DNA of 64,000 nt from assembly GCA_029351405.1 (NCBI GenBank), contig GCA_029351405.1_4841.1. One strand, written 5' to 3'. Shown here in pieces: positions 29,334-38,254 of this stretch; the first letter of the stretch is position 1, and each line of letters starts with the position of its first letter. The stretch is from Escherichia coli. Lineage in GTDB: Bacteria > Pseudomonadota > Gammaproteobacteria > Enterobacterales > Enterobacteriaceae. Position numbers and translations under genes: made by a program. Below the pieces are notes generated by a model. That model did no database searches. It worked only from the letters and a program-made list of their open reading frames with translations, and was not told the origin of the DNA.

Positions 29334-29783
29334 TCAGAAACGGGTATCGCTGACCGTTCTGTATCGCACACCCTGAAACTGTTTAGCGAGTTTAACAAAT
29401 TCCATCGCTGGTAAATCAACTTTGTAGACCTTCATGCGCTGTTTGCCGTCCATGTTCAACGCAGCGACAAATCGGTGTGAGCCGTCAACAACGTAATTGT
29501 CAGAAGACACCCAAACCCGACCCATAGGTTTCTTATTTCTGATGTTCTTCATGATCTTCCAGACCTTCATCTTGTTGATTTCGTTCTGGGTAAGACGAAG
29601 CATTTTGATGGGCACTTGCGCAGCATCTATGGACACGCCGTTGTCTTCAAGATATTTGTGAAAATCTTCTTGTTTGTCGGCATCGATTTGCGGCATAGAA
29701 GAACGAGAAAGCCCGAGGTTCCCAACAGGAATCCTCAGGCCGTTAATGATGTTCAACCAGTCAATAAAAGATGTAAGGAACAT
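29334..29783 (-). CDS. ParB-like nuclease (ParBc/sulfiredoxin-fold) domain protein
   Basis: LRLTQNEI ... VVDGSHRFVAAL resembles the ParB N-terminal DGHHR box. Confidence 0.5.
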   Translation of the reverse strand: MFLTSFIDWLNIINGLRIPVGNLGLSRSSMPQIDADKQEDFHKYLEDNGVSIDAAQVPIKMLRLTQNEINKMKVWKIMKNIRNKKPMGRVWVSSDNYVVDGSHRFVAALNMDGKQRMKVYKVDLPAMEFVKLAKQFQGVRYRTVSDTRF

Positions 29784-30689: not shown

Positions 30690-31196
30690 TTATAGAGTAA
30701 CAAGTGATACGGTAAAAACCATCGTCCCGTCTGTTGCCATTTTTCTTGAAACTGGTATGACGCGAGGCTGGCAGAATATCCATTCTTTCTCCATGGACGC
30801 CAAGTCCAGCATATCCATTTCTGATTCATCGCCTTTGTTCACAAATTTTTCTAGAGAACCATAGACATTAAGCCCCTCCGGGAGTCCGTTTCGATGTTTG
30901 TAACAAATGCGGGCAACAGCTTTGGTTCCGTACGATTTAGAAAATTGTTTGGCCACATGCTTCAGTTCACTGAAGCTAAGACAAGAATCCCATGTCTGGA
31001 ACATGTCGCCTCGTTCAAACATCATCTCTAAACGCGCAACGTCCTCTTTAGGCAGCCCGCGATAAAGTGTGGTCGTCTGTGGTTCGCGTAATTCTTGCAC
31101 CAGATCACGGACGGCAGGGGAAACAGTACCGGGGCGCATTATGTGGGACTTATCATGGACGAGGTAAAATAAATCTTGAATTTGTTGATCGGTCAT
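30690..31196 (-). CDS. candidate mono-ADP-ribosyltransferase (R-S-ExE class; T4 Alt/Mod-like size)
   Basis: 168 aa. The ordered motifs TLYRGLP (Arg), CLSFSEL (S-x-S) and MEKEWIF (E-x-E) have spacing typical of the ART fold. ATG at 31196 in the exact cassette. Confidence 0.45.
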   Translation of the reverse strand: MTDQQIQDLFYLVHDKSHIMRPGTVSPAVRDLVQELREPQTTTLYRGLPKEDVARLEMMFERGDMFQTWDSCLSFSELKHVAKQFSKSYGTKAVARICYKHRNGLPEGLNVYGSLEKFVNKGDESEMDMLDLASMEKEWIFCQPRVIPVSRKMATDGTMVFTVSLVTL

Positions 31197-31222
31197 GGTA
31201 TAGTTCCTGCATTTCAAATAGA

Positions 31223-31616: not shown

Positions 31617-31940
31617 TTATTTGCGCAGGGCAACTACGAGTTCAGCGAGTTCACCCATGGTCGGGTCATCACCTTTACTGCCCAGCCAACCATCGTCGAT
31701 TTCGACCTGAAACTCTTCTTCGAGGTCCATTACAATTTCGATAGCGTCCAGTTCATCACCGCCGAGGTCTTTCTTGGTACGGAGGCCAGCCAGCTTGTCC
31801 AGGGCGTCCTCGTTCTGAGATGCCACGTCGTCCAGCAATTTGCGCTTGTCATCGTCACGCCACAGATCCAAGTTCAGATTGTCAGTGGCGTACTGAGCCA
31901 GATGACGCATGACTTCAACATATGTTGGTTTGCTGCTCAT
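31617..31940 (-). CDS. acyl carrier protein-like protein lacking the phosphopantetheine serine
   Basis: KKDLGGDELDAIEIVMDLEEEFQVEIDD aligns with E. coli ACP [27 protein letters not shown]. The DSL serine is replaced by Glu. There is an extra N-terminal extension of about 45 aa. Confidence 0.65.
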   Translation of the reverse strand: MSSKPTYVEVMRHLAQYATDNLNLDLWRDDDKRKLLDDVASQNEDALDKLAGLRTKKDLGGDELDAIEIVMDLEEEFQVEIDDGWLGSKGDDPTMGELAELVVALRK

Positions 31941-31982
31941 GCTACTTCTCCCAAAGAATGGCGGGTTGCCCCGCCCGTTGGA

Positions 31983-34184
31983 TTAGATTTTGATTTCTTT
32001 CTCTGTCAGTTCGGCAGTGACCTTGTACTTCACCCCATCCACTTCAACTTCCATGGTGGACTCTTCCAGGTCGAGGTCGGTGAACCAGCCATGACCAGCA
32101 ACGATACCATACACCACTTTAGACAGCGTCTTGTTCAGGGCGCGGACTTCGGTGATGGCCGCCTTGGTAGCAGCGTCGATCCAGTTTTCGATCAGCTGTT
32201 TCTGTAGGGCTTCAGGCACGGCAGTGATCATAGGAGACTTCACAAATGCTTCGTACTCTTTCAGAGCATTGGCGATGAACAAGTCACCAGCATTGAGTTT
32301 CTTGTTCTCGGCGATCTTCTTCTGTACTGCCGCGATGCTCGGTAGTGAAGATGCCCCGGCGATCTTAACGTTCAGCTCACGGCTCATGTAGACGTCCGTG
32401 GAGTCCTTCAGTTCGGTCTTCGGTGAGAAGCCGTAATCGCGGATGCCGTAGGAGGACAGGAACTCGGCCGCCTCAGCGCCGTACTGTACTGCCAGGCCTT
32501 TGGCGTTACCCTTACCAACCAGGGCGTCTCGATAGAACTTCAGTACCTTCTGCTTGCCTTTCAGGGCTTCCAGGCGGACATTATCCGCAAAGAACTGAGC
32601 AGCACTGATGTTCTTGACCATGGCGCGGTTGACCAGCGGTACGCTTTCCAGGTTCAGGATGAACACTTCCGGACCACCAAACACGTGGACGCCCATTTCG
32701 ATCAGCTTCTGTACAACTTCGATATCAGCCTTGAACGGCAGAGTCTTCACGTTAATGATACCGTCTTTGACGATGGTGTAGTTGCGCCACTGGAAAGTAT
32801 CCAGTTCTTCAGGCAGGCCAAACTTCTTCTGTGCGAATTCAGGCACAGCCACAGTACCGTGTTGAATTGTACGCACACTGATGTTCGGGCGCTCGGAGTT
32901 ATAGACCAAATCGCTGATTGGCACAACACCCAGGTCGTTGGTAGGTTCGAACGTCGGGTTCCACTCTTCGTGTTCTGCCAGCTTGAGAGCCAGGGCTTTA
33001 CGCTCTTCTTTGGACTGAGCATTCGCGATCTGTTCTGCCAGCTTGTCTTCGGTGTCGTCGGTTTTCTGCACAGTACCGCGCCCGATACTCTTATAGGAGA
33101 ACATCGGATGCTTGGTAGCAACAGGCACACCAGCTTCAGCCAGGTACGTCAGCACATCAACGACGGTTGTCGCATCTTCAGCCGGAACCATGTCATAGTC
33201 AATACCGTCAACGCCGCGCAGCTGGTCATCAACAATCGCCTGAACCAGATCGTTCTTGATGTTGGAGTAGTCCTGCTTGGTGAAGCAGTTGCTGTACTGT
33301 TTGATGAAGCGAACGTCGCCCGTCTTCTTCAGCGCAGCCCAAACCAGATCTGCGTCCATAGTGTGTACGCCGTAGAACGCCAGCACGTATGCCGCCTGGA
33401 TGTCCGTCAGGCTATCCATCTGGTCGATCATGTTAGGGTTTACAACCCACAGCTTGGTGACGCTCTCAGGGATGCTCACATAGCCGACCGGGTGAGAGTC
33501 ATCGTCCTGTACCGCCAGCACTGTTGCCACACCGTTTTCGACGTAGATTGCATGGGTGTAGATGACTGGGACATCAACTTTCACCTTCGGCACTGATGAC
33601 TTCAGCACGTTTTCCAGTTCGTTCTGGTATTCGGTCTGACCTTCGGCAAACACGTGAGTAGCACCGGAGCGTTCGGCCATCTGCGCCAGCAGTTCGCGGT
33701 TACAGTACCAGCCGTATTCGATAAATGTAATGTTATCGAAAGCAAATGGCAGGGTCTCAGCAACCAGTAAGATTTCGTTGGTACGCCAGCAGTTGTCATA
33801 ACCATCGGTCATGAATGCCAGGTTGTTGACGTAGCCAGGTTTCTTCAGGTCACGCGCAGTATCCATCGCCAGTTTCAATGGCTCAACGAAACCAGTACAG
33901 CCGGATGGTTGCAGGAAACGGTCGATCAGTTTGTTCAGCTCGCTCAGGTCAGATGCGACACCGATCTGACGCCCGGCAAATACCGTTCCGAAATCACCGC
34001 GAGATGAAAAGTAAAGGATGCTCACAGTATCTTCGGGTTTCACCAGGGAAGGTAGGTTCTCCTTCAGATGCTTACGGACTTCTGGAAGTGAACGATACAT
34101 GGAACCGGAGATATCCACAACGATTACATGGTTAGACGGCGCGACGGTCGCAACCGCATTCTTAAATGTTAATGATTCAATCAT
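31983..34184 (-). CDS. von Willebrand factor A (vWA) domain protein (733 aa)
   Basis: ATG at 34184 (MIESLTF). MIDAS motif VVVDISGSM, then ILYFSS and MTDG. The large C-terminal region is unassigned. Confidence 0.75.
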   Translation of the reverse strand: MIESLTFKNAVATVAPSNHVIVVDISGSMYRSLPEVRKHLKENLPSLVKPEDTVSILYFSSRGDFGTVFAGRQIGVASDLSELNKLIDRFLQPSGCTGFVEPLKLAMDTARDLKKPGYVNNLAFMTDGYDNCWRTNEILLVAETLPFAFDNITFIEYGWYCNRELLAQMAERSGATHVFAEGQTEYQNELENVLKSSVPKVKVDVPVIYTHAIYVENGVATVLAVQDDDSHPVGYVSIPESVTKLWVVNPNMIDQMDSLTDIQAAYVLAFYGVHTMDADLVWAALKKTGDVRFIKQYSNCFTKQDYSNIKNDLVQAIVDDQLRGVDGIDYDMVPAEDATTVVDVLTYLAEAGVPVATKHPMFSYKSIGRGTVQKTDDTEDKLAEQIANAQSKEERKALALKLAEHEEWNPTFEPTNDLGVVPISDLVYNSERPNISVRTIQHGTVAVPEFAQKKFGLPEELDTFQWRNYTIVKDGIINVKTLPFKADIEVVQKLIEMGVHVFGGPEVFILNLESVPLVNRAMVKNISAAQFFADNVRLEALKGKQKVLKFYRDALVGKGNAKGLAVQYGAEAAEFLSSYGIRDYGFSPKTELKDSTDVYMSRELNVKIAGASSLPSIAAVQKKIAENKKLNAGDLFIANALKEYEAFVKSPMITAVPEALQKQLIENWIDAATKAAITEVRALNKTLSKVVYGIVAGHGWFTDLDLEESTMEVEVDGVKYKVTAELTEKEIKI

Positions 34185-34353
34185 CGTTTTGACCTTTTTG
34201 GGCTTTGGAGTGTTTGGAGTTCGCGTCGGCGTTCTCCAGCATAGTTTCAATGAAATCCCGGTTGTTTTCCATTTGGGCGACCAGAACATCACTGGGGCGG
34301 AATGATTTGTCAAGACAATCAAGTCCGGCGCGTTTTAATTTGTTGTCGGTCAT
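34177..34353 (-). CDS. hypothetical small protein (58 aa)
   Basis: ATG at 34353. Its 3' end overlaps the vWA start by 8 nt. Confidence 0.4.
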   Translation of the reverse strand: MTDNKLKRAGLDCLDKSFRPSDVLVAQMENNRDFIETMLENADANSKHSKAQKGQNDD

Positions 34354-34398
34354 CAGGCTCTCGTGAGTTATATTTCCCAACTATTTCAACATGGAACT

Positions 34399-34429
34399 AT
34401 TATATTACGACAGGCGGTATTGATGTCAA
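34399..34429 (-). promoter_or_regulatory. sigma70-type promoter with a perfect -35 TTGACA
   Basis: Minus strand reads TTGACAtcaataccgcctgtcgTAATATaat, in a 123-bp AT-rich intergenic region. Confidence 0.5.
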
Positions 34430-34503
34430 TTAATATAATAAAAATACCCGATTGAATATAACCGGGCATTATATTATTGACAGGTTGAAATATTATTCAG
34501 AGC

Positions 34504-35376
34504 TTATTTAAAGGAGTCTACAATGGATTTGAAAATATAATCTTTGGAGCGCTGTTGTACCGGGAGTTCTCCATACGGAACCATGCAAGGGTGTTGTTTG
34601 GTCTGAGGGTCTTTGACTGGGCCATACACCCAACCCTCAGACTCCTTCTCCGCCATCCATCTCTCATGCGATTCGCTGGGCTTACGATCACCAGTGAGGT
34701 GGAAGATAACACCTTTGCAAGCGCTCTCACGTTGCCAGGCCGGAGATTGTTCCCAAGGCAGTTGAGAGTCGTCACCAACAGACTTACAGTATGCGCGGTT
34801 GGCTTCATGACAAATCTTGGCGATGCGCAGAACCAATGGCGAATAAGTGAGATCGAGTTTGGAGTTGGCGCGCAGGAAATCACTAACAGTCTTACGAGAT
34901 TTGGCGTTATGAGATTCAACAACAAGTTCCATGTCATCCGGCCCACAAACGAAAGACGCCAAGAAGCGCTCACCATTTTCCGCTCTGAACGTCACGTCCT
35001 GAATCATCACATTGAAGCCGAGGTGATAGGCCGGATAGAGGGCGCTACGTTCAACAGCGTATTGATCGATCCGGATCTCTGCCGTTTCCGTGGCTTTGGC
35101 CAACAGATCTTGTTCAACAAGCGCCCGGTACGTCTCGAGCTGCCACAGCTGGTCGAAGGTATTATTGTAGGAAATCTCTTTGCCCAGGGCTTCATCGAAG
35201 TTGGCAGGGTCTATGGATGTGCTGGGCTTGGTGCCGTGAACGACGAAGCCGTTATCCATCTTGAAATGACAAGTGATAGCCCGGTGACCGCCGACTTCGC
35301 GGTCTTCGTAAATCACCTCAGCGATATGTGACTTCAGGACTTCAGGAGTGAGTTTTATGCCAGTACGAGTTGTCAT
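34504..35376 (-). CDS. fusion protein: N4-gp49/Sf6-gp66-like N-domain + RyR (ryanodine-receptor repeat) C-domain
   Basis: N-part ITCHFKMDNGFVVHG...DPANFDEALGKEISYNN..WQLETY. C-part HERWMAEKESEGWVYGPVKDPQTKQHPCMVPYGELPVQQRSKDY matches the RyR pattern GWxYGxxxDxxxKxHPxxVPYxEL. Confidence 0.65.
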   Translation of the reverse strand: MTTRTGIKLTPEVLKSHIAEVIYEDREVGGHRAITCHFKMDNGFVVHGTKPSTSIDPANFDEALGKEISYNNTFDQLWQLETYRALVEQDLLAKATETAEIRIDQYAVERSALYPAYHLGFNVMIQDVTFRAENGERFLASFVCGPDDMELVVESHNAKSRKTVSDFLRANSKLDLTYSPLVLRIAKICHEANRAYCKSVGDDSQLPWEQSPAWQRESACKGVIFHLTGDRKPSESHERWMAEKESEGWVYGPVKDPQTKQHPCMVPYGELPVQQRSKDYIFKSIVDSFK

Positions 35377-35384
35377 GTGTTATC

Positions 35385-35759
35385 CTATGATAGTTGTTTA
35401 CAGACCTCCACTACTTTACGACACATATCGATATTGAACAACCCAATATGACAATCGCGCTTCTTGATCCCCAGCTTATGCGCCAGCCAACTGTAAGCGT
35501 CGCTCCTGCTCAACTCTCCGCTTTTCCACAGTGGGTCAAACGATCTATGGGCTTCCTGCTTAGCAGCACGGAGAGCGGCATTCGCCATCCTTCCCAAAGG
35601 TTGTCTGCCGTCGCCATGGGCATGGCAACCGACACGGGCATCACATGGGGTACATACCCAGAACTTCAGATTGCGGAGGTCAGGACGATGAGGGTAGAGA
35701 ACATCACCACCGACGAATTCGGCTGGGAGGCCACAGTAATCACATATAACAGGTTCCAT
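35385..35759 (-). CDS. DUF3268-type zinc-finger protein
   Basis: ATG at 35759. CDYCG ... CTPCDARVGCH ... CHIGLF. Confidence 0.55.
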   Translation of the reverse strand: MEPVICDYCGLPAEFVGGDVLYPHRPDLRNLKFWVCTPCDARVGCHAHGDGRQPLGRMANAALRAAKQEAHRSFDPLWKSGELSRSDAYSWLAHKLGIKKRDCHIGLFNIDMCRKVVEVCKQLS

Positions 35760-35819
35760 ATTCTTTGTCCAAAAGAAACCCCGCACATGGCGGGGTTGCT
35801 CAGGCCGAGGCCAACAGGG

Positions 35820-36191
35820 TTATTTCAGCAGCGCTTCCAGTTCTTCAATAGATTTGCCTTCCAGCTCCTGCTGTTTCTTACGCTGGATCAGCTCCAGGAT
35901 AACCTGGTTGTTCGCCTTACGCTCTGCCGCGTCTTTGATGTCGTCGCGTTCTTTCAGCTTAACACCGATGATGTGCTTGACAACGTCGAAGCGCAGCTGC
36001 AATTCGGAATCAACGTTGCTTTTGGTGCCAATGAAATCTTCTTCATCGGTTTCTGCTGCTTTCACCTGACGGCTCAGACCTTTCGCCATTTCGTTCAGGG
36101 CGGTCAGGCTCAGATCCCAAACCTGCTCAACAGACAGCAGACCTTTGTTAGACTCGAAGCGCAGTTTCAGACGGGTTACTTTATCAAACAT
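35820..36191 (-). CDS. hypothetical protein (123 aa)
   Basis: ATG with SD GAGGA. Helical and charged. Confidence 0.55.
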   Translation of the reverse strand: MFDKVTRLKLRFESNKGLLSVEQVWDLSLTALNEMAKGLSRQVKAAETDEEDFIGTKSNVDSELQLRFDVVKHIIGVKLKERDDIKDAAERKANNQVILELIQRKKQQELEGKSIEELEALLK

Positions 36192-36235
36192 TTTACTATC
36201 CTCAATGATGAATGGGTCACAATTTCAAATCAGGT

Positions 36236-38254
36236 TTAGAACACAACTTTCACAGTGCGGTTGAACGAGCCGCTCACCTTCACGAACACGTGGTTGCGTT
36301 GGGTGGTAGAGAAGCCCAGACCGGACAGCTGCTCAGTGCTTGGCTGTACTTTAATCTTACCACCTAACATTTCAAAAACCTTGCGGTGTTTATCAAGTTC
36401 CGGCTTCAGATATTCGTTATAGAAGCCACGGGTGCCGACAGGGTTAGCACAACCTTCCAGGATGAAGAACACGTGCTTGTTGCCAGTCTGCTCACCGTCC
36501 CAATGGTTTGGTGAGTTCAGAACCAGCTGTACCTTCTGGAAGACCGAGGTCTTGATGCCCCAGATTTCCTGAGAGCGAGCGTCGTCCTTCAGGGTAGAAC
36601 GGATGTCTACCACCTGACCAGCGCGGACATCAATCACAACAGCCAGAGTGCGATCTTTGTGCTTCAGACCAGGATGCGAAAAACGCTTGGTCTGGCCTTT
36701 GTATTCAACTTCGATTTCGAAGCCCATATCACAGGTTTCACGCTGGCTGAAGTTAGTGACATAGAACTCGTACAGACCATCACGCAGCTTGCGTTCATCG
36801 CTGAAGAAGATGTTCTCCACCGGGCGGCGGTTGGGATCAATGCCGTCCATACCGTTCATGTCGATATCCAGGGTTGCGCCAGTTGCCGAACGACGGTTGT
36901 GATAATACACGTGGTTGTGAAGAGGATCGTTCAGGCTCAGATCCAGGTCGTCGTTGTTATGCCAAGCCAGTGACACGCGGAGGAAGCTGTCGACATTGCC
37001 GCCTGCGGTCTTCACGCGCTCTTTGATAGAGTCGGCCACTTCGCCATTGTACGACCAGCTGAAGCCGTTGTTCCACTTGAACAGGTTAGGAGCGCCTGCG
37101 GTAGCCGGAGCGATCAGGGACATCAGGTTGCCAATGTGAGAGTTTTCGACCAGCACTTCCAGGGAATGCGCCTTTGGCAACACGTTGGTCAGGAAGTCGT
37201 CGATCGTGATCTCTTCAACCTTGTCCAGGGACTTGGTCGGAGTCTTCACTTCAGACGCCAGCTGAGCAAACGGGTCCATCTTCTTCTGAGCTGCCAGATC
37301 GGCGAACAGAACGTTGTTGATGGTCAGATCGTCATACACGGCATAACGGCGACCCAGTGAATCAGTCAGACCCAGCGCTTCGACTTCTTTCTGCGCGTTT
37401 TCAATCATAGACTTCGTGACCAGCGCGGTTGGGCGCTTGTAGTTCGTCGGAGCGACTTTGGTTTCAAAGGACTTCACGGCGGTTTCCAGATCCCGGCCTT
37501 CATTGAGGTCTACCAGCAGAGAGCCAATCACGGTATTACGAATGCCGTGAGGGGTATGACCGTTTGCACGGTAGCCAGTGCGCCAAGCCCACAGAGCGCG
37601 TTTCTCTTCTGCAGTTTGTTCGTACAGGGTCTTGTTCACCACAAACGCCTGCACTGCCGCTTTGTGCTCTTCACCGCGATACAGAGAATTCTGGTCGATC
37701 AATTCCAGAACGATTTCAGCCGATTCCAGAGACAGTTCACGCAGGCCGCGCTCAAACACTTCAATCGCCTGGCGGATTTCACCCTTCTTAGAAGCGATGG
37801 CATCTGCCCGCAGAACATAGCTGCCCAGCAGGTCGGTGTGGAAGTGGTTGTAGGTGCGGACAATACCGTCTTTCATTTCGTGATTCGACCCAACACCAAC
37901 TTTCTTGGTGTCGTTGAAGTACACGTCGACGATTGCGTGCTGCTTAACATACGCTGACAGCGCCGCAGCGACAACGTCATATTCGTTACCCAGCTGAATG
38001 TTATCCCAGATAGAGATCACGTTCAGGTCGGAGTCGATGGTGACCACACCGCCGATGTTACGGATGAATTGTTTACAGCAGGTGCAGTCGTGCTCGGTAC
38101 GCTCACGGTAGAGCGGGTTGGTACCAGCAGGGAAAGAAGACAGATACAGATCCCACAGAGCATCTTTATCGATGTTGGTCATGAACAGACCAGTTGCTGA
38201 CATGGCCAGCACGTTATTGTTGACAGCTACTGCGAAGGGCTTAAAATCTGACAT
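36236..38254 (-). CDS. large hypothetical protein (672 aa) with a Cys cluster and a possible TerD-like C-terminal module
   Basis: HDCTCCKQF near the N-terminus. DDLDLSL..HVYYHNRRSATGATLDIDMNG..PVENI loosely resembles the TerD DLDxS..VFYxN..S..G..GDN.TG pattern. The leader has a hairpin + ATTTGAA + GAAACAGGAAGATTACATCATG. Confidence 0.6.
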   Translation of the reverse strand: MSDFKPFAVAVNNNVLAMSATGLFMTNIDKDALWDLYLSSFPAGTNPLYRERTEHDCTCCKQFIRNIGGVVTIDSDLNVISIWDNIQLGNEYDVVAAALSAYVKQHAIVDVYFNDTKKVGVGSNHEMKDGIVRTYNHFHTDLLGSYVLRADAIASKKGEIRQAIEVFERGLRELSLESAEIVLELIDQNSLYRGEEHKAAVQAFVVNKTLYEQTAEEKRALWAWRTGYRANGHTPHGIRNTVIGSLLVDLNEGRDLETAVKSFETKVAPTNYKRPTALVTKSMIENAQKEVEALGLTDSLGRRYAVYDDLTINNVLFADLAAQKKMDPFAQLASEVKTPTKSLDKVEEITIDDFLTNVLPKAHSLEVLVENSHIGNLMSLIAPATAGAPNLFKWNNGFSWSYNGEVADSIKERVKTAGGNVDSFLRVSLAWHNNDDLDLSLNDPLHNHVYYHNRRSATGATLDIDMNGMDGIDPNRRPVENIFFSDERKLRDGLYEFYVTNFSQRETCDMGFEIEVEYKGQTKRFSHPGLKHKDRTLAVVIDVRAGQVVDIRSTLKDDARSQEIWGIKTSVFQKVQLVLNSPNHWDGEQTGNKHVFFILEGCANPVGTRGFYNEYLKPELDKHRKVFEMLGGKIKVQPSTEQLSGLGFSTTQRNHVFVKVSGSFNRTVKVVF

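Follow-up and report, generated by a model that had tools for sequence, protein, structure and literature searches.

Host TerD/Ter stress systems have historically been tied to phage inhibition, and bacterial ter operons pair TerD-family proteins with vWA proteins, in one case as TerF and in another as a TerD-vWA fusion. Viral RyR-domain proteins (RyDEP, PF02026) are described by Lopez Rivera et al. (bioRxiv 2026, PMC13232231) as binding or cleaving the cADPR signals of Thoeris. The same text gives H75, W78, H100, and D117 of RyDEP as the ligand or catalytic residues, and reports that the signals were bound by six and cleaved by none of the eight homologues tested; it gives no separate result for homologue H6 (PMC13232231). 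We compared these systems with a cluster of seven genes in a 64,000-nucleotide stretch of DNA from an Escherichia coli assembly (the window). The gene anatomy, the domain and fold assignments, and the distributions of the genes were determined, and molecular functions were predicted from them. We read the cluster, with moderate confidence, as a variable accessory segment of the Ackermannviridae genome that is composed of independently inherited cassettes and is not one system. This accessory island probably has a counter-defence role.

The window phage belongs to the Ackermannviridae (Aglimvirinae) and shares 96.4% identity with Escherichia phage PC3 in this region. The seven ORFs all lie on the minus strand, where the initial annotation had placed them, and its domain calls were all correct in Pfam (DUF3268, Phage_gp49_66, RyR, VWA, and PP-binding). 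The segment is flanked on one side by the block of replication and thymidine-modification genes and on the other by further early genes. The gene upstream of the cluster encodes a 5-hmdU DNA kinase (HMUDK; Pfam HMUDK_hel, E 5e-82), in agreement with the earlier placement of the cluster downstream of thymidine-modification genes, and a MazG-like pyrophosphatase also adjoins the cluster on this side. The position directly downstream of the kinase and the pyrophosphatase, and the synteny with HMUDK in all Ackermannviridae loci, are consistent with the cluster genes being auxiliaries of the adjoining thymidine hypermodification and nucleotide-metabolism block, for example with the ACP-like and vWA proteins as carrier and scaffold. 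However, hundreds of phages with the 672-aa (DUF8224) or 733-aa vWA (vWA733) protein described below have no HMUDK within 10 kb, the ACP-like protein has no Ser for carrying any group, and no transferase or synthase was found in the cluster with Pfam, which makes such an auxiliary role extremely unlikely.

Terminator-like hairpins, found by pattern matching, lie between the cassette units. One follows the 123-aa gene (35777-35797, minus strand; an 8-bp stem with 6 GC pairs, then a T-rich tail), one follows the gp49-RyR gene (34443-34470, minus strand), and one lies between the vWA and ACP-like genes (31960-31975, minus strand), a gap in which the annotators of Dickeya phage LIMEstone1 also placed a terminator at the matching position. 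A sigma-70-like promoter (TTGACA-16-TAATAT; 34402-34429, minus strand), likewise a pattern match, is located upstream of the 58-aa gene. The hairpins after the 123-aa, gp49-RyR, and vWA genes and the promoter before the 58-aa gene suggest that the region comprises three to four transcription units, so that the two operons proposed earlier hold only as an approximation. A search of the whole window with Rfam gave no match, including to the DUF3268 RNA motif.

The 672-aa protein (36236-38254, minus strand) is a full-length member of Pfam family DUF8224 (PF26675). Homologues 99% identical to it carry a precomputed PF26675 match, as do all but one among the 120 matches listed from more than 5,400 homologues, and phrog_1735 matches the ORF over its full length. 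It comprises an N-terminal module (residues ~1-400), an inserted TerD-like β-sandwich, and a C-terminal module (residues ~565-672), and its predicted structure had a pLDDT of 83.5. An alignment with short homologues revealed the insert as well as the residues C57, C60, and H137, which are invariant in the N-terminal module, and this CxxC...H triad of the DUF8224 core is probably a Zn site. No match to the 672-aa protein was obtained in scans with NCBIfam, PADLOC, or a copy of Pfam without the PF26675 model, and four separate domain fragments gave nothing usable against Pfam. HMMER searches of PDB sequences with the protein and its family profile returned chance matches only (BacB, E 0.13; a RING finger, E 0.24), and the RING finger match falls on the CxxC region. 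A Foldseek search of the whole model against the PDB gave none at E ≤ 0.001, the best being lipoxygenase PLAT domains. The 672-aa and 123-aa proteins are labelled as RNA polymerase in the Sajous1 paper and in some records of GenBank; no such similarity was observed, and polymerases were absent from the fold matches. DUF8224 was present in 557 of 50,697 phage records, and its carriers include Ackermannviridae, ~145 kb Klebsiella myoviruses, and phages of Caulobacter, Bacillus, Xanthomonas, Vibrio, and Microcystis.

The TerD-like β-sandwich domain (residues ~420-555; 36590-36997, minus strand) is inserted in the DUF8224 core. The initial annotation had ventured a weak TerD-like call for this part of the protein; the motifs that it quoted are present, and the predicted structure, which has the TerD β-sandwich fold, supports the call. 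No substitution occurs in 39 homologues at W431, N433, D435, D436, L437, D438, L462, D463, D465, N467, V479, E480, and N481. Among these, D435, D436, D438, D463, D465, N467, E480, and N481 sit in loops in the same order as in TerD, and the acidic loops of the insert would sit where TerD binds Ca2+. The loops with invariant acidic or amide residues (DDLD, LDxDxN, and VEN) are probably a Ca2+ site, as judged from their sequence. In sequence searches, Pfam TerD did not match the 672-aa protein, the isolated domain, or any of the 39 homologues even at E values up to 5-10, and it matched none of nine domain-bearing representatives. A comparison of 164 domain sequences with nine Ter sequences by hhalign gave a P value of 0.0056 and a probability of 6.5% over 34 collinear columns, and only nine columns were aligned when thin profiles were used; we take this similarity as suggestive at most. 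Most proteins with a domain of the insert's sequence family are either DUF8224 proteins or multi-repeat proteins that also have Zn-ribbon and C-type lectin domains, and these relatives gave marginal matches to DUF2135, P_proprotein, and PPC. DUF2135 was rejected as the identity of the β-sandwich: it was matched by only 3 of the 39 homologues (E ~0.02), and its match in the cellular repeat proteins spans only ~20 residues of a generic-looking stretch.

The 123-aa charged protein (35820-36191, minus strand; ORF matching phrog_2018 at E 9e-47) is probably helical. Its family corresponds to no Pfam family and gave only noise, such as DUF7444 at E 0.009 in one member. When ORFs were clustered in 80 IMG/VR loci, the 123-aa gene was found near DUF8224 in 76 of them, directly downstream in most, and it was the sole gene cluster besides DUF8224 that recurred across non-Ackermannviridae loci. 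DUF8224 and the 123-aa gene form a two-gene cassette that many unrelated large phages share. The 123-aa partner goes only with the long form of DUF8224, which contains the insert, and the small genes that follow the short form are unrelated to it. Because it is found with the long form only, the partner would be expected to work with the TerD-like insert, and the pair may bind some factor of the host or its defence in a metal-dependent manner.

The genes for DUF3268, gp49-RyR, and the 58-aa protein form a hypervariable middle cassette. The DUF3268 (PF11672) zinc-finger protein, 124 aa from its ATG (35385-35759, minus strand; Pfam E 2e-38), is missing in several Ackermannviridae relatives and occurs sporadically near DUF8224 or vWA in unrelated phages. 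The gp49-RyR gene (34504-35376, minus strand) encodes a 290-aa fusion of a gp49-like N-domain (Phage_gp49_66, E 2e-11) and an RyR (R12) domain (E 2e-10), the latter at residues ~178-290 (34504-34845, minus strand; Pfam RyR, 40.9 bits against a cut-off of 27.4). The RyR domain matched an RyR repeat structure in the PDB with an E value of 6.6e-20 and the 139-aa chain 35tm_A with an E value of 5e-10. The fusion protein is identical to the RyDEP homologue H6 (UniProt A0A0C5PQF8) at 282 of 290 residues (97%) and is 34% identical to the DyoEdafos RyDEP (BLASTP, E 7e-14). H237, W240, H262, and D279 align with H75, W78, H100, and D117 of RyDEP at identical spacing, and all four are conserved. By sequence, the gp49-RyR protein is a member of the RyDEP family, and it is predicted to bind the Thoeris cADPR signals (2'cADPR/3'cADPR). 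One gene of the cluster is thereby placed in a newly described anti-Thoeris family, of which the window phage has a near-copy of H6, and the earlier remark that the cluster lacks an obvious phage function no longer holds for this gene. Because of the identity to H6, the earlier suggestion of an anti-defence role of the region also gains support; for the genes other than RyR, a counter-defence label would be guilt by association.

The gp49-RyR gene is either 96-98% or only 39-47% identical among phages in which the flanking genes are 71-99% identical. The divergent alleles have no Pfam RyR domain, and such an RyR-less allele is present in many Ackermannviridae. In P46FS4, the NAD-salvage genes NAMPT and PRPS adjoin the RyR-less gp49-like allele at the matching position. 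A gp49-like domain near homologues of the cluster occurs only in the Ackermannviridae. Since RyR and RyR-less alleles alternate here, in some cases (P46FS4) with NAD-salvage neighbours, the locus appears to be a counter-defence hot spot, and it is a place to search for new anti-defence genes.

The 58-aa protein (34177-34353, minus strand; ORF matching phrog_11447 at E 1e-44) occurs in the Ackermannviridae only, with divergent alleles. The 3' end of its gene overlaps the vWA start codon, with 8 nt shared, and the two genes would be translationally coupled. The following gene encodes vWA733, the 733-aa vWA protein (31983-34184, minus strand; Pfam VWA, PF00092, E 1e-5, above the curated cut-off). 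Residues ~1-290 of vWA733 begin with a vWA domain, in which the MIDAS is complete, and continue with a β-sandwich (ITIH, ArnB, Sec24 trunk-like), and the last ~440 residues gave no recognised match. The MIDAS residues D24, S26, S28, T97, and D127 do not vary among 44 homologues, and, by sequence, ITIH1 and ArnB are the closest relatives of solved structure. vWA733 was present in 504 of 50,697 phage records, including Ackermannviridae, T4-like phages of Klebsiella, Citrobacter, Enterobacter, and Rhizobium, and PBS1. No neighbour was conserved outside the Ackermannviridae in 80 vWA733 loci. The protein is a self-contained MIDAS protein that may ride in the virion at low copy.

Published proteomes bear on this last point. 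In the virion proteome of LIMEstone1, the vWA homologue was represented by 6 peptides (11.4% coverage), whereas each of the obvious contaminants (ligase, gp44, and PhoH) was represented by a single peptide, and 1 peptide of the homologue was detected in Sajous1 virions. Several GenBank records also label the homologue as a minor tail protein. vWA733, perhaps with its small neighbours, could accordingly be a low-copy virion component, either ejected with the DNA and active from the onset of infection or serving as an adhesion factor of the particle, and not an intracellular early protein. However, few peptides were detected, the name tail protein comes from automatic annotation, and the gene lies among early and middle genes, where it follows the sigma-70-like promoter and no late promoter motif of the T4 type was found. 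We regard a virion location as rather unlikely; it would in any case concern a single gene and is compatible with the accessory island.

The acidic ACP-like protein (107 aa; 31617-31940, minus strand) matched Pfam PP-binding (PF00550) with an E value of 3e-5 and 24.8 bits, above the cut-off of 20.8. It has the four-helix PP-binding domain, and 71 ACP sequences in the PDB matched it at E ≤ 0.01; with the NCBIfam ACP models, it scored under every cut-off. The protein reads DLGGDELD where the canonical motif is DLGADSLD, so the earlier description of a Ser-less ACP homologue, with DSL replaced by DEL, is right. The attachment Ser is replaced by Glu or Asp in every Ackermannviridae homologue, and D[ED]L is present in all eight distinct homologue motifs. 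The ACP-like protein cannot carry acyl groups because the phosphopantetheine-attachment Ser is Glu or Asp, and it would most likely act as a binding mimic or partner protein. Binding of host FabZ has been predicted in a preprint for some phage ACP, though not specifically for this ACP-like protein. The ACP-like gene adjoins vWA in the Ackermannviridae only.

A broader proposal would join several of these features. DUF8224 and the 123-aa protein could be a widespread two-protein phage system (present in over 500 sequenced phages from unrelated lineages), in which a Zn-site, enzyme-like core is regulated or targeted via the TerD-fold, Ca2+-binding insert; independently of this, vWA733 could form a virion-carried pair of MIDAS protein and ligand with the Ser-less ACP mimic. 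We consider this combined proposal unlikely. If it is true, DUF8224 and the 123-aa protein could act in host takeover or counter-defence as proteins of a new class and might even act on the host TerD/Ter stress systems.

The initial annotation had grouped the TerD-like, vWA, RyR, zinc-finger, and ACP-like proteins into one Ter-type host-manipulation or anti-defence unit, comparable with bacterial TerD/TerY. The co-occurrence of a TerD-like fold and a vWA domain with an intact MIDAS agrees with that grouping, as do the ter operon pairings given above, the Ca2+ or other metal links of all three domain types, and the stable gene order of the Ackermannviridae (DUF8224, 123-aa, ..., vWA, ACP). We examined the linkage of the genes in 160 related loci, of which 80 were IMG/VR loci around DUF8224 homologues and 80 were loci around vWA homologues. 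The TerD-like (DUF8224) and vWA genes were linked in the Ackermannviridae only, and their host-genus distributions differ. In the 80 DUF8224 loci, vWA, ACP, gp49-RyR, and HMUDK were found within 10 kb of DUF8224 only in the Ackermannviridae. Within this family, Dickeya phage LIMEstone1 has intact vWA and ACP genes, a 174-aa remnant of DUF8224, and none of the 123-aa, DUF3268, and gp49-RyR genes. The genes are thus not co-conserved beyond one phage family and are separable inside it, which contradicts a coherent, co-evolving Ter-like module. Lack of co-conservation across relatives was also the outcome that the initial annotation had itself named as speaking against its grouping.

In a few non-Ackermannviridae genomes, such as IMGVR_UViG_3300017769_000001 and Aeromonas phage phiA8-29, DUF8224 and vWA733 occur together at a distance of 30-60 kb. 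Six unrelated loci have DUF3268 in the vicinity of DUF8224 or vWA, and one has an RyR domain near vWA; these re-associations with DUF8224 or vWA could reflect more than chance. A functional link specific to the Ackermannviridae is also possible, because the gene order is stable within that family.

None of the seven proteins scored above noise in PADLOC, vWA733 had no TerY-P match there, and hhalign against two Ter-operon vWA proteins gave a probability of 5-6%, so that the assignment of vWA733 to the Ter type (TerY/TerF) is not supported. No TerB, TerC, kinase, or phosphatase/PP2C was detected in the cluster with Pfam. In addition, the function of the RyR domain is a different, ligand-based one, and the TerD-like domain family occurs mostly in C-type lectin repeat proteins and not in ter loci. 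A single Ter-type module is largely refuted because of the gene distributions, and we consider it very unlikely. These results correct a tempting but wrong grouping, in that shared 'calcium-flavoured' domains do not amount to a Ter-like system.

With the region read as an accessory segment of separate cassettes, each protein can be compared with its own closest described system. The DUF8224 and DUF3268 proteins (672 and 124 aa) are ordinary full-length members of their families. Searches of the literature on DUF8224, PF26675, DUF2135, and phage ACP mimics located no functional data, and the dissection of DUF8224 into a CxxC...H core, an optional TerD-like insert, and a 123-aa partner is absent from the literature searched; it is a first anatomy for one of the more widespread uncharacterised proteins of large phages. 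In regards to TerD (PF02342; PDB 2KXT and 2QZ7), the insert shares the collinear motifs L-W strand, DLD, G, and [IV][FY]Y-N-x-x-S, whereas the TerD signature GDN(R/L)TGEGDGDDE is by eye absent, with LDxDMN...PVEN in its place. Moreover, TerD is a stand-alone protein of ~190 aa, and the domain here forms an inserted part of a phage protein of 672 aa, without ter operon context. The ACP-like protein is clearly ACP-like in the helix-II region, DLGGDELDAIEIVMDLEEEF in an alignment with the Bacillus subtilis ACP, but differs by an N-terminal extension of ~45 residues. Compared with the ITIH, ArnB, and Sec23/24 trunk type, vWA733 has neither an ArnA-like FHA/Zn-ribbon partner nor a MoxR ATPase, and is a phage-encoded, stand-alone protein. 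The RyDEP founder is a 138-aa glycosidase, to which the window protein adds an N4-gp49-like N-terminal domain and a middle region. The founder sits inside a NARP1 operon, and the NAD-salvage genes of P46FS4, beside the RyR-less allele, echo that placement.

We compared the gene neighbourhoods of 80 loci (with 10 kb flanks) around homologues of the 672-aa protein (36236-38254), a member of Pfam DUF8224 (PF26675), and of 80 loci around homologues of the 733-aa vWA protein (vWA733; 31983-34184). The 123-aa gene (35820-36191) was the only recurrent neighbour of DUF8224, occurring in 76 of the 80 loci and mostly just downstream. The genes for vWA, the ACP-like protein (107 aa; 31617-31940), the gp49-like + RyR fusion (gp49-RyR, 290 aa; 34504-35376), the 58-aa protein (34177-34353), and HMUDK were found near DUF8224 in the Ackermannviridae loci only. 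No neighbour of vWA733 recurred outside the Ackermannviridae in its 80 loci, iterative HMM searches included. In the phage collection, DUF8224 occurred in 557 records and vWA733 in 504 records, which overlapped essentially in the Ackermannviridae alone. DUF8224 was otherwise found in Klebsiella and Serratia myoviruses of about 145 kb, phiCbK-like Caulobacter phages, and Bacillus, Xanthomonas, Vibrio, Microcystis, and Cellulophaga phages, and vWA733 in T4-like Klebsiella, Citrobacter, Enterobacter, Cronobacter, Pseudomonas, and Rhizobium phages and in PBS1. A few genomes carried both genes 30-60 kb apart. Dickeya phage LIMEstone1 possesses intact vWA and ACP genes and a 174-aa remnant of DUF8224, and lacks the 123-aa, DUF3268 (35385-35759), and gp49-RyR genes. 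The initial annotation had proposed one coherent Ter-like anti-defence or host-manipulation module; this proposal is not supported, given the failure of co-conservation outside the Ackermannviridae (160 loci) and given LIMEstone1, which uncouples the genes inside the family. The cluster is a variable accessory segment of independent cassettes. One cassette is DUF8224, with its predicted TerD-fold insert, and the 123-aa partner; another is the hypervariable DUF3268/gp49-RyR/58-aa stretch, containing a predicted RyDEP-type anti-Thoeris protein; and the further parts are a stand-alone MIDAS vWA protein and a Ser-less ACP mimic. Guilt by association is the basis for a possible counter-defence role of the genes other than RyR. 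In a few phages outside the Ackermannviridae, a DUF3268 gene was observed within 10 kb of a DUF8224 homologue (loci L035, L037, and L054) or a vWA733 homologue (L135, L136, and L140), and L147 has a RyR-domain gene about 8 kb from its vWA gene.

Escherichia phage PC3 (Ackermannviridae, Aglimvirinae) shared 96.4% identity with the region. The region matched 255 phage records, and almost all of these phages have hosts in the genera typical of the Ackermannviridae (Salmonella, Klebsiella, Escherichia, and Dickeya). ORF calling placed the seven ORFs at the positions initially annotated. All the cluster genes are on the (-) strand; upstream of them lie the genes for the clamp loader, for RegA, for a pyrophosphatase of the MazG-like type, and for the 5-hmdU DNA kinase (match to Pfam HMUDK_hel with E 5e-82). 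Pattern matching located terminator-like hairpins 3' of the 123-aa, gp49-RyR, and vWA genes and a promoter-like site (TTGACA-16-TAATAT) upstream of the 58-aa gene, and no T4-type late promoter motif was found within the cluster. The Rfam scan of window 1-64000 gave no family at gathering score, including the DUF3268 RNA motif described for other DUF3268 genes. Directly downstream of the ACP-like gene, a 175-aa ORF (30690-31217, (-) strand) without a Pfam match resembled the C-terminal part of phrog_832, an Alt-like 'RNA polymerase ADP-ribosylase' (E 5e-16). A 149-aa ORF (29334-29783, (-) strand) contains the sequence DGSHR and had no Pfam match; its equivalent in LIMEstone1 (L171 11390-11839), by position alone, is annotated as 'confirmed structural protein'.

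More than 5,400 homologues of the DUF8224 family are present in a large protein collection. The shorter relatives, from Pseudomonas phage PaMx74, Ralstonia phage RP13, and Klebsiella phage KpLz-2_45 (about 535-565 aa), aligned with residues 1-400 and 565-672 and lacked exactly the TerD-like segment, which indicates that the beta-sandwich is an insert in a two-part core. The small genes 3' of short-form DUF8224 were unrelated to the 123-aa protein; thus, the 123-aa partner goes with the insert. R52, C57, C60, H137, W224, D249, R274, R302, R303, E614, R624, and E628 are among the residues that do not vary between the long and short forms, and the CxxC...H triad suggests a putative Zn site. The GenBank records of ChubbyThor, vB_KpnM_BIS47, and pSC20 and the proteome table of the Sajous1 paper give the label 'DNA-directed RNA polymerase' to homologues of the 672-aa and 123-aa proteins; we found no similarity supporting this label and rejected it.

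Pfam TerD matched neither the 672-aa protein, its isolated domain, nor 39 homologues, and HMMER of the 672-aa protein against PDB sequences gave no match. With TerD, TerE, and TerZ from two ter plasmids as hhalign targets, only HVYYHNRRS was aligned with FIFYNNLKS; when 164 sequences of the domain were compared with 9 Ter sequences, 34 collinear columns were aligned (P 0.0056, 6.5% probability). The sequence methods gave no convincing result for TerD. The TerD-like call is supported at the level of the predicted fold but not as membership in the TerD sequence family. The invariant D435, D436, D438, D463, D465, N467, E480, and N481 are in loops after the collinear motifs, and the domain is a putative Ca2+ binder. 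The insert profile matched 7,034 cluster representatives. Matches beyond DUF8224 included an Hsp70 fusion and proteins in which 3-13 tandem copies are combined with Zn-ribbons and C-type lectin domains; none of nine representatives carrying the domain had a TerD Pfam hit, and overlaps with DUF2135, P_proprotein, and PPC were marginal. This occurrence in varied tandem-repeat, Zn-ribbon, and lectin proteins suggests that the insert is a generic, probably Ca2+-dependent, binding module. The motifs W-x-N-x-DDLDL, LDVD[AM]N, and PVENI characterise the domain family of the insert, which apparently has no name. Representative-library proteins of this family are P0241, P0243, P0244, P0247, P0257, P0279, P0349, and P0371, and in its large tandem-copy proteins the Zn-ribbons are N-terminal.

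The DUF3268 (E 2e-38), gp49-like (Phage_gp49_66, E 2e-11), RyR (E 2e-10), vWA (VWA, E 1e-5), and ACP-like (PP-binding, E 3e-5) domain calls were all backed by Pfam above the curated cut-offs. The MIDAS residues D24, S26, S28, T97, and D127 were invariant in 44 vWA homologues (down to 33% identity), in agreement with the annotated MIDAS. The predicted model of vWA733 had a pLDDT of 86.6 and a pTM of 0.68. HMMER against PDB sequences matched vWA733 to ITIH1 (E 1.6e-5) and ArnB (E 2e-4), and its last ~440 residues had no match. A Ter-type (TerY) affiliation was not upheld, as vWA733 exhibited no specific similarity to the vWA proteins of Ter operons or to PADLOC TerY-P models. In purified LIMEstone1 virions, the vWA homologue was represented by 6 peptides (11.4% coverage) and evident contaminants by 1 peptide each; in Sajous1 virions, it was represented by 1 peptide. 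The vWA protein may be located in the virion at low copy. Upstream, the vWA frame continues without a stop codon as far as the TTG at 34322 (31983-34322, (-) strand, 779 aa); this extension is probably not translated because all homologues and phrog_2426 begin at the ATG at 34184 (733 aa). The vWA start overlaps the end of the 58-aa gene, which matched phrog_11447, by 8 nt. In the alignment of the ACP-like protein with B. subtilis ACP, DLGGDELDAIEIVM was aligned with a 14-residue stretch, and Glu or Asp replaced Ser in every distinct homologue, which confirms the Ser-less ACP homologue as annotated.

Across related phages, the gp49-RyR gene is mosaic, being 96-98% or only 39-47% identical where its flanks are 71-99% identical. 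In the divergent alleles (P46FS4 and Sajous1), the gp49-like domain is retained, and there is no Pfam RyR domain. In P46FS4, NAMPT and ribose-phosphate pyrophosphokinase genes adjoin the RyR-less allele, inserted between the gp49-like and 58-aa/vWA genes (L002 5881-8396). At this spot, LIMEstone1 has only a truncated nadV (L171 6091-6423), and the homing endonuclease F-LimVI follows its HMUDK gene. The P46FS4 insert and the truncated nadV indicate that NAD-salvage genes come and go at the RyR-domain position; the presence of different answers to NAD-based immunity in one place would fit a counter-defence hot spot. According to a May 2026 preprint (PMC13232231), viral proteins of the PF02026 family, which it names RyDEP, act against Thoeris. 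The founder, mycobacteriophage DyoEdafos gp78, is located within a NARP1 NAD+ operon and is a glycosidase that converts 2'cADPR and 3'cADPR to ADPR (PMC13232231). Six of eight other homologues, identified in a figure of that preprint, bind the signals without cleavage, and two of these, encoded by Ruegeria and Pectobacterium phages, are nanomolar sponges that rescued phages from Thoeris (PMC13232231). The gp49-RyR protein was identical at 282 of 290 residues to homologue H6, a Salmonella phage protein (PMC13232231 supplementary table), and direct alignment with DyoEdafos gp78 covered 88 residues at 34% identity (E 7e-14). H237, W240, H262, and D279 aligned with founder H75, W78, H100, and D117, which hold and cleave the ligand (PMC13232231). 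The four aligned ligand residues and the near-identity to H6 place the gp49-RyR protein, judged by sequence, in the RyDEP family, whose known function is to counter Thoeris.
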